Assembly: GCA_951406725.2 (NCBI GenBank)
Contig: OX597816.1
Coordinates: 126,356,001-126,420,000, forward strand
Source: Octopus vulgaris
Taxonomy: Eukaryota
Length of the DNA: 64,000 nucleotides
Reading direction: 5' to 3'
The notes under the pieces are model-generated. The model searched no databases. It was not told where the DNA came from and was given only the letters and a program-made list of their open reading frames with translations. Positions 2,612 to 51,415 of the stretch are shown in pieces (within the stretch, counting starts at the first letter, position 1; each line of letters starts with the position of its first letter). The translations under genes and the position numbers were made by a program.

Positions 2612-2695
<84 letters not shown>

Positions 2696-2744
2696 AAACA
2701 AGTCAAAAATAGAAAATGCTAAGATAATTTTATAGTGAATCTTT

Positions 2745-2782
2745 CAGTACTGGTTTCGGTCATTTTGAGACCTTTTCAACTG
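2745..2782 (-). ncRNA. Minimal hammerhead motif (U3-A8 variant) in the inverted terminal repeat
   Basis: Minus strand CAG-TTGAAAA-GGTC-TCAAAAT-GACC-GAAA-CCAGTA-CTG; the stem III palindrome is broken (ACCAGT versus ACCGGT in the right copy). Confidence 0.65.
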
Positions 2783-3189
2783 TAACGATTAAATAATTAA
2801 ATTTAGAAAAATTAGAAGAAAAGTTTTTTTAAAAGAATATTTCTGTAGTAGTGTTCAGATATAAGTAGCATTCTGCCTTTCTCTGACTCCCTTGTTTGCA
2901 CTTGTGTGTTCGAGGTCGTTTTGAGTTCTTGGTAGGATAGGTGAAGAATAATGAGGCTGATGTGGAGAGGGGGTGGGGAAATCTGGGAATGCCTTAATGG
3001 TCGTATTTTGAATGGTCAGTGGCTGACAGTAGTCGCAGTTCAATTCAGGAATTGTTTATGGAATTTGCGTAGGCGTTATACTGAAAGACATTAGTGACAA
3101 GGTTAAGGGGTGGAAGGTGAAGTAGAAGAAGAAGAAGATGACGATGTTGATGATGATGATGAAGAAGAAGAAGAACACCACACCCGAAT

Positions 3190-3351
3190 ATGGGATATCG
3201 GGATGCTCTCCTCAATACTGCTCCAAGAACATACACCATAAATCACAACAGGAGACCCCACATCAACAAAGAACAACTATATAATAGCTACCGTCCCAAC
3301 CACCGCATTCATTTTTTAGACCCAATACGCAAACACAGAGACACAAGATAG
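3190..3351 (+). CDS. Short upstream ORF (53 aa, MGYRDALLNTAPRTY...HRIHFLDPIRKHRDTR*), probably the C-terminus of a 5'-truncated PLE ORF1
   Basis: Manual translation; the frame is open from the inversion junction (~3175) to TAG 3349-3351 and overlaps the RT frame, which is open from 3288. Confidence 0.5.
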   Translation: MGYRDALLNTAPRTYTINHNRRPHINKEQLYNSYRPNHRIHFLDPIRKHRDTR

Positions 3352-3488
3352 CACCAAACAAGCAGGAGGAACCAAAAGTAATAAAAATTATCAATCTAAC
3401 TCACAAGGAACTAACAGCAAACCAAATTAACATACTTTCCAAAGGACTCAAGTTTACACCCACCCCACAACACCCCAACTACAACGAA

Positions 3489-5642
3489 ATGAAAGAAGAC
3501 ATCGCAGAATTCTACAGAAAATTAAGACTTACTGAGGAGCTATACGATAAATACAACGAGGACGAATCGTTAGCCAGAAATAGGAGTAACTACACCCCCT
3601 CGAAAGGTAAGAACAAAACACTTGATGATTTCTGTGACCACATATCTAATTACCCATATCAACATATGCACAAACAAAAACACAAACCAAACTTCAGCAA
3701 AAAAGAATGGGCTGAATTGAACAAATTAAAACAAGATAAAACAATAACAATCAAAGAGGCCGATAAAGGGAGTGCTGTTGTCTTAATGGATACAACATTT
3801 TACATAACTTTGGTACTTTCTATGCTGGAAGACACAACATACTATGAAAAGGCACAAAACTACAGTCAACAAAAAATAATGAGGGAACTAAAATCCATAT
3901 TAAACCCATACAAAGCAGGACTCACCGACAAAGAATATGATTATATGACCAATTTCACAAGTAAAACTAGCCAATTCTACGGTATACCTAAGATCCACAA
4001 AAGTGAAAAAATAAGCAACGCATGCAAGATAGCTACAGACAAAATAATTAAAGTCCCTAATCCTAATGACCTCAAATTGAGACCCATAATAGCAGGTCCC
4101 GCATGCGAAACCCACCGCCTCAGTAACTTTTTAGACACCCTGTTAAAACCACTCCTCAAACATGTCAAAAGCTATATAAGGGACGACTTAGATATGCTCA
4201 ATCACCTACCGAATACTATAAACAAAAACACCATACTGGTATCCTTCGATGTAGTCAACCTCTACTCCAATATCCCCCACAACCTAGGACTAGAGGCAAT
4301 CCAATTCTGGCTAGAGAATCACGCCAACGAACTACCACACCGCATCAAAAAAGAATTTGTGATAGAAGGGGTTAAATTCATCCTGGAAAATAACTTCTTC
4401 GCCTTCAATGACAACTTCTACCGACAAAAATCGGGGACTGCGATGGGTACACGAATGGCCCCCTCCTTTGCCAACCTAGTCATAGGATACCTAGAGATCA
4501 GTCTGTATCGTAAGGTTCTAGAAAGATATGGCAGCCCTTTCTCCATCTACATAGAAAACAACTGGAAGAGATATCTAGATGACTGTTTCATCCTTTGGCA
4601 TAAAAATATAGAAAAACTCATAGAATTCCAGAAAATTTTAAACGGACTGGACGTAAACATCCAATTCACGATGGAATATAGCCAACAACAACTCCCCTTC
4701 CTCGATATCCTCATTAAGAAAGCTAATAATATAATAGAAACAGACATATACTATAAGCCTACAGACTCTAAGCAATATCTTCCATTCAATTCATGCCACC
4801 CCAGACACACCAGGATGAATATCCCCTTCAATCTAGTAAAAAGGATATGCACTATAGTCTCTAACGCAAACACCAGAGACACACGACTACAAGAACTAAA
4901 AGATACCCTTATCACCAGGAACTATCCACCTTCACTTATTGACAAGTGCATTCAACGTGCCCTTCAACTTAACATCAAGGAACTGAGACATCCTAAATCA
5001 AAGAAAAACTTACAACCAAAAGCCTTACCATACATCTCCACACACAACCCTCTCAATAACGAAGCCTTCGACACCATCCTCCACAACATACCCCTCCTAA
5101 AAAAAGACCACAGAATGAACACAATCCTCCAAACACACACGATCATAAAAAGCAAAAGACAGCCTAGATCCATGAAAAGTCTCCTTACACAAGCCCGAAT
5201 TCACTCTTCAACACAGAAGCCGACAGTAAAAAAATGTGGAAGACCCAATTGCGGGATATGCGACTATCTAATTGAGGGATCAGAGTTCTCCTTCAAACAG
5301 GGACAACGGTTTACAGTGAAAAGCAACTTCACATGTGCTTCGGAGAACCTAATATACTCACTAACCTGCTCCGGGTGTCAAGAGCAGTACATAGGCCAAA
5401 CAAAAAATGGTTTGCGTAAACGAATGGCCCTGTACAGATCCCAGATAAAAATTCCCCAAAACAGAAAAATAGCTTTTAGCCAACACATAGATACTTGCGC
5501 CAACAAAAAAACACCAAACTTCAGAATTTTCCCCCTCTACCAATTTAGGGACGATACAACCTCGAGACAACGAATAAGTAAAGAAAATCTCTTTATTACA
5601 AAATACAAGCCACTTCTTAACGGGTCTACGACAAACAATTAA
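3489..5642 (+). CDS. PLE reverse transcriptase + GIY-YIG endonuclease
   Basis: Motifs ADKG, FYGIPKIHK, LRPII, SFDVVNLYSNI, GTAMG..MAPSFANL, RYLDD, FLD, YYKPT; CX4CX2C linker (CGRPNCGIC); LIY..TC..C..YIGQT. The frame extends upstream without ATG to 3288 and encodes IINLTHKEL...ILSKGLKFTPTP. Confidence 0.97.
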   Translation: MKEDIAEFYRKLRLTEELYDKYNEDESLARNRSNYTPSKGKNKTLDDFCDHISNYPYQHMHKQKHKPNFSKKEWAELNKLKQDKTITIKEADKGSAVVLMDTTFYITLVLSMLEDTTYYEKAQNYSQQKIMRELKSILNPYKAGLTDKEYDYMTNFTSKTSQFYGIPKIHKSEKISNACKIATDKIIKVPNPNDLKLRPIIAGPACETHRLSNFLDTLLKPLLKHVKSYIRDDLDMLNHLPNTINKNTILVSFDVVNLYSNIPHNLGLEAIQFWLENHANELPHRIKKEFVIEGVKFILENNFFAFNDNFYRQKSGTAMGTRMAPSFANLVIGYLEISLYRKVLERYGSPFSIYIENNWKRYLDDCFILWHKNIEKLIEFQKILNGLDVNIQFTMEYSQQQLPFLDILIKKANNIIETDIYYKPTDSKQYLPFNSCHPRHTRMNIPFNLVKRICTIVSNANTRDTRLQELKDTLITRNYPPSLIDKCIQRALQLNIKELRHPKSKKNLQPKALPYISTHNPLNNEAFDTILHNIPLLKKDHRMNTILQTHTIIKSKRQPRSMKSLLTQARIHSSTQKPTVKKCGRPNCGICDYLIEGSEFSFKQGQRFTVKSNFTCASENLIYSLTCSGCQEQYIGQTKNGLRKRMALYRSQIKIPQNRKIAFSQHIDTCANKKTPNFRIFPLYQFRDDTTSRQRISKENLFITKYKPLLNGSTTNN

Positions 5643-5759
5643 TATACCTCAACTTTAGAATAAAAGAAATATATACACACACAAATATTACACTCCATAG
5701 AATCCATTACTAATCAGCCCCATCACTTACACCCATTCATATTCTCCCTTCTCTGTTTT

Positions 5760-5935
5760 TTTCTTCTTCTTCTTCTTCCTCTTCTTCTTCATCATCATCA
5801 TTATCATCATCATCGTCGTCATCATCATCACCACCATCTTCTCCTTCTCCTTCTTCTTCTTCTTCTTCTTCTTCTTCTTCTTCTTCTTCATCATCATCAA
5901 CATCGTCATCTTCTTCTTCTTCTACTTCTCCACCT
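5760..5935. repeat. (TTC)n/(ATC)n trinucleotide tract in the PLE 3' UTR
   Basis: Seen directly; the inversion junction of the left repeat falls within this tract. Confidence 0.9.
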
Positions 5936-6266
5936 TCCACCCCTTAACCTTGTCACTAATGTCTTTCAGTATAACGCCTACGCAAATTCCATAAACAATT
6001 CCTGAATTGAACTGGACTACTGTCAGCCACTGACCATTCAAAATACGACCATTAAGGCATTCCCAGATTTCCCCACCCCCTCTCCACATTAGCCTCATTA
6101 TTCTTCACCTATCCTACCAAGAACTCAAAACGACCTCGAACACACAACTGCAAACAAGGGAGTCAGAGAAAGGCAGAATGCTACTTATATCTGAACACTA
6201 CTACAGAAATATTCTTTTGAAAAAACTTTTCTTCTAATTTTTCTAAATTTAATTATTTAATCGTTA

Positions 6267-6304
6267 CAGTTGAAAAGGTCTCAAAATGACCGAAACCGGT
6301 ACTG
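6267..6304 (+). ncRNA. Minimal type I hammerhead ribozyme (U3-A8 core variant)
   Basis: CAG-TTGAAAA-GGTC-TCAAAAT-GACC-GAAA-CCGGTA-CTG: stem I CAG/CTG, stem II GGTC/GACC, palindromic ACCGGT stem III, GUA triplet (predicted cut after 6301). Confidence 0.75.
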
Positions 6305-6391
6305 AAAGATTCACTATAAAATTATCTTAGCATTTTCTATTTTCGACTTGTTTTTTCATATATATCAACTCGTGTGTTCCTTTCCACCCTT

Positions 6392-6434
<43 letters not shown>

Positions 6435-19499: not shown

Positions 19500-20378
19500 A
19501 ATATCCAAAAATTAGTATAACCAAAAATAGTGAATCTCTCAAACATAAACCTTTCAACCCAGCAAATCAAAATCCTTTCAAAAGGACTAAACTTCACTCC
19601 AACCCCACAATACCCTAACCTGAGTGAAATACAGGATGCTGTCTCATACTTTTGCAGAAAATTACACCTCACAGAGGAATTTTTTGACAAAGAAATTAAT
19701 AACGAGGAATCAAGACCAATTATAAGGCAGAAACAAAATTTTGGACAAATTTTGTGACTACATTACAAACTTTCCTTATAGCGAATTTCCACAACCTAAA
19801 CCCAAGCCCAATATCAGTAAAAGGGAATGGGAAATCATCTATGAGTTACAAAACAATCATGACATGACAATCAAGGGAACAGAAAAGAGTAGTACTGTCG
19901 TCATTATGGATACTGAACAGTACAAAAACTCTGTATCTCACCTCTTACAAGATACTACCTACTATGAAAGAGTAGTCAACCACCAACAATCAATAACAAT
20001 TACCAAATTAAACACATTCATTTGCCAACATCGAAATAACTTAACGGCAAAGGAAGGTGACTACCTAACAAATTTTAATTGCAAAACCAGCATCCTCTAT
20101 GGGCTTCCAAGAATCCACAAGAGCAAGATAATTACCAAAGCTTGCAAAAAGTTCACTTCAACCTGCATCACTGTACCACATCCCACTGATCTCAAACTGA
20201 GACCAACTGTGGCAGGTGCAAACCGCGAAGCACACAGATTAAGCAACTTCATCGATGTACTCTTAAAACCAATACTTAAATACATACCAAGTATTGTAAG
20301 AGATGATGGACCTACTAAATCCTCTCCCCAAACATACCAATAAAGACATTTTCATTGTCTCCTTTGATGTAATTAACC
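19500..20378 (+). pseudogene. Decayed PLE RT N-terminal fragment, related to the 3489 element
   Basis: IVNLSNINLS...ILSKGLNFTPTP, LYGLPRIHK, LKLRP, HRLSNFID, SFDVIN; contains frameshifts and is 3' truncated. Confidence 0.9.
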
Positions 20379-50087: not shown

Positions 50088-50833
50088 GCCAAACTGCGCA
50101 ACATGCCCAAACCTTCTAGAAGGATCAGAATTTCTTTTCAAAGAGGAACAAAAATTCAAGATCAGATCTAATTTTACTTGTGCTTCTGAAAACATAATTT
50201 ATGTCATAAGGTGCTCGGGCTGCCACTAAAACTACGTGGGGTCCACGGGATTATCACTCAGACATAGATTCACTCTGCATCGACAACAGATTGCATTCCC
50301 AGAATACAGAATGATACCCTTTAGTGAGCATATGGAGAAATGCGCAACGCAACTACTACCACAATTTTTAATCTTTCCATTCTATCAATGTGCCATCGGA
50401 ACACCAACACAAATTAGATTAAACAAGGAAACATTCTTCATTGAAAAATATAAGCCTGAACTTAACCATCCTAACATTCTTATACAGAGAAACTCATCTC
50501 ATTAGATAAGGGAAAAGAAATATAAAGCGATTACCTCCCTTATACCGGAAGAAATCGCTTATTACCTCCCCCTGCCTGGAACTCTTCTTTGCACTGCATA
50601 ACGAAGACATAACACGATGTAGGTAAAGACATTTAAGAAATTTGAAAAGTTAACATGAAACCGGTAATTTCTTCAAAAACTATGTTACTATATGCAAAAT
50701 TTTATAACATTCTTCTAACATAACGACTTAAATATATTCTTTAACCTTATAAAACAAGCCTTCTGTAGTTTCTTCACTCTTTTCTATTTTCTATATATCC
50801 AACCACATGCTTTCACACACCAACTTTCTCACC
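50086..50833 (+). mobile_element. 5'-truncated PLE (GIY-YIG + 3' terminal repeat), second family
   Basis: RPNCATC...NFTCASENIIYVIRCSGCH*NYVGST...RFTLHRQQI...EKYKPELN; microsatellite flanks; hammerhead in the 3' region. Confidence 0.92.
50635..50673 (+). ncRNA. Minimal type I hammerhead ribozyme (U3-A8 core variant)
   Basis: AAGAAAT-TTGAAAA-GTTAACAT-GAAA-CCGGTA-ATTTCTT: perfect 7-bp stem I, very short stem II, palindromic ACCGGT stem III. Confidence 0.75.
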
Positions 50834-50926: not shown

Positions 50927-51415
50927 ATTGAAAATATGGAGAATGAGAATTTGAAAATTCAAACTCTAAGTTTATTTCCAGTTAGTATAATAGTTTGGCA
51001 CGTGTTTTGATTGCACCAACTGCATACTGTTGCATATTCATATGCTGTGATTTATACATTATTAGTATGATCTCTTCAGGGCATATGAATATGACATTAT
51101 TTGAAGAGGAACAAACAATGTCATATTTATATACCCTGAAGAGATCATACCAATAATGCATAAATCACTTTATATGAATATGCAACAGTATGCAGTTGGT
51201 GCAATCGAAAAACGTATCAGACTATTATACTAACTGGAAATAAACTTTAAGTTTGAATATTCAAATTCTTCATTCTCCTTATTTTCAATATTGTACTTTA
51301 CACTCTAAGTAGTCAAGAAATAAACTGGGACATTGGATGATAGTTAAAAGTAGATTACTAAAAAACGTATCAGAGAAATTCAGTATCTGCCTGGATTTCA
51401 TATCCCTCCTTTTAC
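50927..51415. mobile_element. Inverted pair of PLE-like termini (arms ~177 bp, 8-nt spacer) plus one-sided tail
   Basis: 50927-51103 is the diverged reverse complement of 51112-51289; each arm has CTGAAGA-GAT...ATC-(G)AAA; microsatellite flanks. Confidence 0.7.

Follow-up and report, generated by a model that had tools for sequence, protein, structure and literature searches.

A conserved slippery heptamer in the overlap of ORF1 and the RT-EN frame of EN-bearing Penelope-like elements of Octopus vulgaris and other organisms

Introduction

Penelope-like elements (PLEs) that carry an EN (EN+ PLEs) are called single-ORF elements in two earlier papers (PMC8557442; PMC11167929), and a third divides PLEs into those with a single ORF and EN and those with two ORFs lacking EN (PMC6431247). 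The legend to Fig. 1 of one of these papers lists a PLE ORF1 separable by a frameshift with a pseudoknot, together with a coiled coil (PMC8557442). An ORF1 with a coil domain is reported for Coprina-1_Alen (PMC13159263), and a short, non-overlapping ORF1 is described for a killifish Neptune, with no frameshift claim (PMC12602865). Esterases are mentioned for Neptune-like PLEs (PMC5408684).

Neptune/Nematis-type EN+ PLEs share with the elements described here an RT followed by a C-terminal GIY-YIG domain, a CX2-5CxxC finger in the linker, direct and inverted pseudo-LTRs (pLTRs), (TA)n flanks and a hammerhead-like motif. They are described as single-ORF, whereas the elements presented here combine two ORFs with EN. 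Athena/Terminon PLEs also have two ORFs; these are EN-deficient and telomeric, in contrast to the EN-bearing, dispersed elements studied here, for which no conserved hairpin or pseudoknot was found. The frameshifted, pseudoknot-separated ORF1 of the Fig. 1 legend mentioned above is said to be that of the EN-less Athena.

Outside PLEs, retroviral and LTR-element gag-pol and coronavirus ORF1a/1b use the same heptamers as those reported below, U UUU UUA being the HIV-1 site and U UUA AAC the coronavirus site. In those systems the structural ORF is made in excess over the polymerase fusion, as would be the case here; they differ in that no Gag homology was found for ORF1 of the present elements and no conserved RNA structure 3' of the site. 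The literature searched, from which key papers and Repbase reports were absent, did not yield any account of a slippery-site junction in EN+ PLEs, and there is a real, if minority, chance that specialists have already noted ORF1 and a frameshift in Neptune.

Materials and Methods

The window is a stretch of 64,000 nt from Octopus vulgaris contig OX597816.1. Copies of its element (family A) were collected from the 2.8-Gb genome in two ways. A DNA search returned 661 candidates, of which 40 were scored and 30 taken, all 98-100% identical. Since these had been picked by similarity at the junction, a second set was chosen by a stretch of ORF1 800 nt upstream, resulting in 30 copies, partly the same ones, of which 29 had RT downstream.

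A scan of metagenome contigs with an alignment of the RT N terminus confirmed 241 loci, and the 80 best were kept. Thirty junctions, from seven octopus genome families and 23 metagenome loci, were chosen for detailed analysis. ORF1 residues 1-300 were searched against protein clusters, giving 566 clusters at 50% identity, the best 150 of which were examined. A quick tree of 49 rows was built with SH-aLRT support only, leaving out near-duplicates and copies with fewer than 280 RT residues.

Results

Anatomy of the window copy

The window contains a young, 5'-truncated copy of a GIY-YIG PLE (Table 1). Its RT-EN frame matched Pfam RVT_1 (E 3.5e-08) and GIY-YIG (E 0.0034, below the Pfam cut-off), and a CxxC...YIG motif is visible in it. 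As originally predicted, this frame is open without an ATG until 3489, and the ATG-less part encodes the conserved N motif IINL...LSKGLKFTPTP. The prediction had also placed this motif in a copy near 19500, where it was located in an older fragment. Genomic relatives of that fragment (family D) have ORF1 and T TTT TTA.

Table 1. Features of the PLE copy and of a related fragment in the window.
Feature	Position	Strand	Remark
Inverted copy of the 3' pLTR, joined to the 5'-truncated body	2684..3175	-	95-98% identity to 5872-6365
ORF1 3' remnant, last ~57 codons	3176..3351	+	full ORF1 in long copies
RT-thumb-Zn linker (CGRPNCGIC)-GIY-YIG frame, 784 codons	3288..5642	+
Slippery heptamer T TTT TTA, ORF1 codons Phe400-Leu401, -1 phase to RT	3312..3318	+
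ORF1 stop TAG, 10 sense codons past the heptamer; candidate pause element	3349..3351	+
3' UTR / pLTR; in full and tandem copies repeated immediately 5' of ORF1	5643..6399	+
Hammerhead-like core in the pLTR, TTGAAAA replacing CTGANGA, 4-bp stem II, palindromic CCGG stem III	6270..6301	+	pattern scan
Older broken fragment of related family D, truncated before the junction	19524..20377	+	N motif present

A second frame, predicted to run through an ATG at 3190 to the TAG at 3351, overlaps the RT frame by 61 nt. The frame itself is real; the ATG was rejected as its start, being the internal Met359 of a 411-aa ORF1. Through 5' truncation the window copy is without the first ~353 codons of this ORF1. 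From stop to stop its ORF1 frame begins at 3163, within the inverted pLTR, and the inversion junction lies at ~3172-3176, the point at which other copies run on into ORF1. The heptamer T TTT TTA was confirmed to be phased, as proposed, for a -1 slip into the RT frame. Taken alone, a single heptamer in a single copy is weak evidence: a similar pattern matches 13 times within the element (3170-5700), and when in-phase stretches of ORF1 of equal length are examined in this family, 19% include a heptamer.

The EN region of the window copy has Tyr at ~5430-5435 where four other loci (L101-L104) have His in RMALHRSQ, a change that likely damages the EN zinc site. Elsewhere in the window, 50089-50466 holds a further, separate GIY-YIG fragment that belongs to a different PLE family (52% identical, with a stop), and near-perfect long palindromes lie at 1310-1430 and 50946-51269, with arms of ~60 nt and 158 nt; these are possibly PLE inversion junctions or MITEs.

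The hammerhead-like core reads TTGAnAA, not CTGAnGA, in families A, B and E (the window copy and the pLTRs of L061 and L214). By pattern scan, the canonical CTGAnGA core is present in 6-7 group II loci (see the RT tree below); four loci gave no Rfam match. Hammerhead positions 3 and 8 base-pair, and the two cores differ by a paired change at these positions.

The two-frame junction in other family A copies

Both the run of six T and the two-frame junction are kept in all 30 DNA-selected copies (of 661 candidates). Among the ORF1-selected copies the run has six T in 29/29, and the ORF1 core and RT stand in -1 phase in 25; the other four show another phase and have indels elsewhere. Counting matches at overlapping loci and not unique copies, six T were found at 77/77; one old copy (L074) has seven. 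The idea of a 1-nt indel in the T run of the window copy, held out as an alternative in the original prediction, is contradicted by both sets.

The long ORF1 sought in longer copies was found. These have an open frame of 437-446 codons, with 411 aa from an ATG after the 5' pLTR (P0001), and retain the two-frame junction; full examples lie at L014:441-1676 and, stop to stop, L104:1418-2758. Intact ORF1 and RT-EN occur together in L101-L104, tandems among them. Family A copies have the PLE-type RT and C-terminal GIY-YIG in one frame, the Zn-finger-like CX2-5CxxC linker between RT and EN (CGRPNCGIC in the window), and pLTRs, partial tandems and inversions, as expected of EN+ PLEs and, for the linker, of the Neptune/Nematis clade. 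They depart from the single-ORF description by the separate 411-aa ORF1, which overlaps in -1 phase. Being dispersed over many contigs and having EN, they do not fit the EN-less, telomeric Athena/Terminon type.

The junction in other families and organisms

The arrangement recurs in six more octopus families and in metagenome contigs. In families B, C, D, F and G, ORF1 is followed by RT-EN in -1 phase, with T TTT TTA as the heptamer in B, C, D and F and T TTT TTT in G. The ORF1 cores of families B and C are 64-66% identical, and CATTTTTTAGAC is invariant in families A-C while the DNA upstream differs widely. All eight family E copies have the heptamer and six show -1 phase relative to the RT motif, but an unbroken ORF1 occurs in none. 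One of the eight (L230), whose ORF1 core is in frame with RT, was considered as a natural ORF1-RT fusion and rejected, the phase being explained by C-run (homopolymer) indels in an old copy; its heptamer is retained.

The N motif is shown by 70 of the best 80 of 241 confirmed metagenome loci. A canonical in-phase X XXY YYZ heptamer was present at 29 of the 30 chosen junctions, against 2.1 expected over the 28 with a control; the junctions had been picked after an overlapping frame had been seen, and shared ancestry of the families inflates P-values. The heptamers were TTTTTTA (14), TTTAAAC (12), TTTTTTG (2) and TTTTTTT (1), with the phase kept throughout, and the last junction (L114) reads G GTA AAC. 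Conservation of heptamer and phase, anticipated in the original prediction, leaves chance no longer an explanation.

The ORF1 stop is TAA or TAG at 27 of the 30 junctions. The commonest codon before the heptamer is His (CAT), with both heptamer types; His also stands there in 24/67 of the proteins described next.

The ORF1 protein

Among the best 150 of the 566 clusters, 84 ORF1 homologues of at least 300 aa were found, the named ones coming from Mytilus and Pinctada. Phe-Leu occurs within the last 45 aa in 67 of the 84, compared with 4 and 5 in two preceding control windows. The residue before it is never K, E, Q, M or W (0/67; background 19%), so that a codon ending in T is possible there in every case. 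Linkage of ORF1 to a PLE RT was confirmed by Mytilus gene models, in which the two are joined, presumably by a predicted intron. In one Mytilus gene model (P0160) the annotation splices ORF1 and a partial RT to a gene with a fibrinogen domain; mollusc protein sets are thus contaminated by these elements. A weak search for natural in-frame ORF1-RT fusions of at least 976 aa found none.

For the ORF1 core, dN/dS was 0.10 between families A and B and 0.17 between A and C, with B-C saturated; both the ORF1 and the RT frame are under purifying selection. The predicted structure is all-helical, with N-terminal helices, a helical core at 92-243 (pLDDT >90) and a disordered basic tail, and it gave generic bundle matches only (best Z 8.8). 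ORF1 has no Pfam family and no Atlas match, and PDB sequences gave generic coiled coils only. Gag features (CA fold, CCHC knuckle) were looked for, and neither Pfam nor PDB nor fold comparison gave a specific match; no ORF1 relatives were found in viral contigs. The likening of the locus to gag-pol holds for the arrangement of the two frames and does not extend to ORF1, for which no Gag homology was found.

The group I ORF1 core (groups as defined below) aligned with the 130-190-aa N-terminal region of single-ORF PLEs at an hhalign score of 23.6 (probability 8%), with controls at 12.9 (reversed) and up to 12.9 (shuffled); this likeness is suggestive only. Group II ORF1 showed no homology to group I ORF1 above controls. 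Five group II loci (L127, L129, L130, L134 and L135) have, immediately 5' of the heptamer, a C-terminal ORF1 region resembling SGNH/GDSL esterases (IGDSN...DGxH, judged by eye, no Pfam match), which is missing from the ORF1s of other group II loci.

RT tree

Three groups were obtained, each at 99 support. An overlapping -1 frame with heptamer was present in 12/12 rows of group I, which includes the window family, and in 14/15 rows of group II, in which L175 is single-ORF, L126 has CAT TTA AAC TAA at the contig start and L114 is the locus with G GTA AAC. Heptamer and phase are conserved among members whose RT identity to family A goes down to 25-34%. In group III, a -1 upstream frame of at least 100 codons was found in 0/21 rows, ten of which have less than 300 nt of upstream DNA. 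The linker Zn finger occurs in the two-ORF rows of groups I and II with complete EN and is absent from the ten group III rows with EN. We call the two Zn-linker clades Neptune-like, a label given by the linker motif to tree rows that are unnamed loci. Penelope/Poseidon-type single-ORF PLEs have the same RT N motif as the two-ORF elements, and their N-terminal region is the one that aligns weakly with the ORF1 core; they differ in lacking the linker Zn finger and in having the N-terminal domain in frame with RT, behind an ATG of its own (16/21 rows of group III). In L168, a long-branch PLE that is perhaps Coprina-like and in which no EN was seen, the upstream frame stands in -1 phase, is 413 codons long and is rich in Q, N and H.

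Expression of the RT-EN frame

The two-ORF arrangement at a frameshift-type junction is, at the level of sequence, real, conserved and widespread in EN+ PLEs. ORF1 overlaps RT-EN at the conserved heptamer, and very probably free ORF1 and a minority ORF1-RT-EN fusion are made by programmed -1 frameshifting. With the phase fixed, U UUU UUA and U UUA AAC replace each other, which is expected under -1 ribosomal frameshifting but not under splicing, reinitiation or polymerase slippage. The same proposal in the original prediction is well supported by the conserved heptamer and phase, and came through when tested for an indel in the T run, for splicing at the AG and for loss of the heptamer in other families.

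Translation would start at the ORF1 ATG just 3' of the 5' pLTR. On the heptamer the tRNAs would slip by -1, giving ...His-Phe-Leu-Arg-Pro-Asn... with entry into RT at AGA 3318 and, in full copies, a fusion of ~1,175 aa. The abundant ORF1, with its helical bundle and basic disordered tail, may coat or package RNA, as ORF1/Gag proteins do.

Alternatively, RT-EN might be made as a separate protein through termination-reinitiation or leaky or non-AUG initiation near the ORF1 stop, for which LINE-1 ORF2 is a precedent. The ORF1 stop is indeed close to the RT N terminus, an RT-frame ATG lies 10 codons past the heptamer in families B and D, and families A and C have an ATA that overlaps the ORF1 stop. 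We consider this improbable: the open RT frame has no Met before the N motif at 25/30 junctions (five have one), and a canonical in-phase heptamer, across which the RT frame is open, would be left unexplained. A conserved ATG overlapping the ORF1 stop was rejected as a candidate, since the RT codon at this position is ATG at 1/30 junctions and otherwise varies (ATA, CTA, GTA, TTA, TTG, CTG).

Still less probable is that the T run and a following AG serve as a 3' splice site, joining the pLTR or ORF1 to RT, an alternative raised in the original prediction. PLE introns are documented (PMC8557442), and ORF1 is fused to RT in the gene models of mussel, where the join falls after the Phe-Leu motif and not at it. 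An AG follows the heptamer at 13/30 junctions, the window family included, and a G-starting codon is possible after Phe-Leu in 47/67 homologues, making AG often available. At the other 17 junctions, among them family G and all T TTA AAC elements, AG is missing, which rules out a splice acceptor as a general explanation; 20/67 homologues cannot have G after the heptamer. A GTRAG donor common to families A, B, C and F was not found, and splicing needs no codon phase with ORF1, yet the phase of Phe-Leu is fixed. In contigs from four public runs, each of a different study, the site is spanned without splicing and no joint is seen at it, a weak indication because none of the listed runs is on record as RNA, so that their RNA status was guessed, and because contigs drop rare forms.

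RNA polymerase slippage on the T run, adding a base in some transcripts and so fusing the frames, would suit the six or seven T at 17/30 junctions and the seven T of the old copy L074. It is highly improbable: a long run is missing from T TTA AAC, the 77 family A matches all keep six T though retrotransposition would fix slipped transcripts, and the contigs of the same four runs, with RNA status guessed, have no insertion at the T run. That a single-ORF element was broken by an indel in individual copies or by a dead mutation passed on by descent, which could be read from L230 and from the four family A copies in another phase, has next to no probability and is refuted by conservation across families, as those copies carry indels elsewhere and keep the heptamer, and as the -1 phase is common to intact two-ORF copies from six families and to contigs of other organisms, with both frames under purifying selection.

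Downstream structure and distance to the ORF1 stop

The region 3' of the heptamer was folded. The original prediction had noted no obvious hairpin there, and no conserved structure emerged. Families A-D gave no 3' hairpin (z +0.7 to +1.8), and among the 30 junctions folding was better than z -2 in only three (L114, L118 and L121). No stimulatory hairpin or pseudoknot was found 5-9 nt downstream, by folding that did not model pseudoknots explicitly, and long-range pairing was not consistent and no better than controls. RNA at the junctions is A-rich.

The distance from heptamer to ORF1 stop was 0-1 codons at 12 junctions, 10-12 at 13 and 17-23 at five, with 0/30 at 2-9 codons. Among the proteins, 22/67 homologues end exactly 10 residues after Phe-Leu, 0/67 at 0-8, and 38/67 have tails of at least 13 residues. 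The ten tail residues are unlike each other among homologues; at the junctions, the stop distance does not depend on how far away the RT motif lies (20-68 codons where the stop is at 10).

This non-random distance, whose statistics are inflated by shared ancestry, suggests termination-driven pausing. More speculatively, the pause would come from termination itself: either a stop within the following one or two codons would act, or the slip-prone translocation step would be blocked by a ribosome that terminates ~10 codons ahead. Collided ribosomes sit ~10 codons apart, a spacing at which a ribosome terminating at the stop would meet its follower translocating off the heptamer. That the pause driving slippage comes from termination in either form is possible, if doubtful. 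For SARS-CoV-2, the site of the 0-frame stop affects frameshift efficiency, and a proposed mode of action is that the stop lets the pseudoknot refold (PMC8168617). Since no conserved 3' RNA structure was found in the present elements, that route cannot apply to them.

Discussion

The full proposal, namely an overlooked gag-pol-like frameshift in two deep EN+ PLE clades that is stimulated without RNA structure by termination, with the terminating ribosome as roadblock, is on balance unlikely to hold in every part. If true, it would be a natural collision-programmed -1 frameshift. The elements supply many natural, putative -1 sites that make up one large family, show no evident RNA structure and have a stop codon at fixed spacing, so that the programming of frameshifting by ribosome queuing can be put to a direct test.

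With the upstream ORF1, the accepted anatomy of EN+ PLEs changes. Repeat libraries that start at the internal Met would miss a protein of 400-750 aa and the true N terminus of RT, and biochemistry or genome engineering on Neptune-type enzymes would need both the fusion and free ORF1. The weak likeness between ORF1 and the in-frame N-terminal domain suggests how one- and two-ORF PLEs relate.
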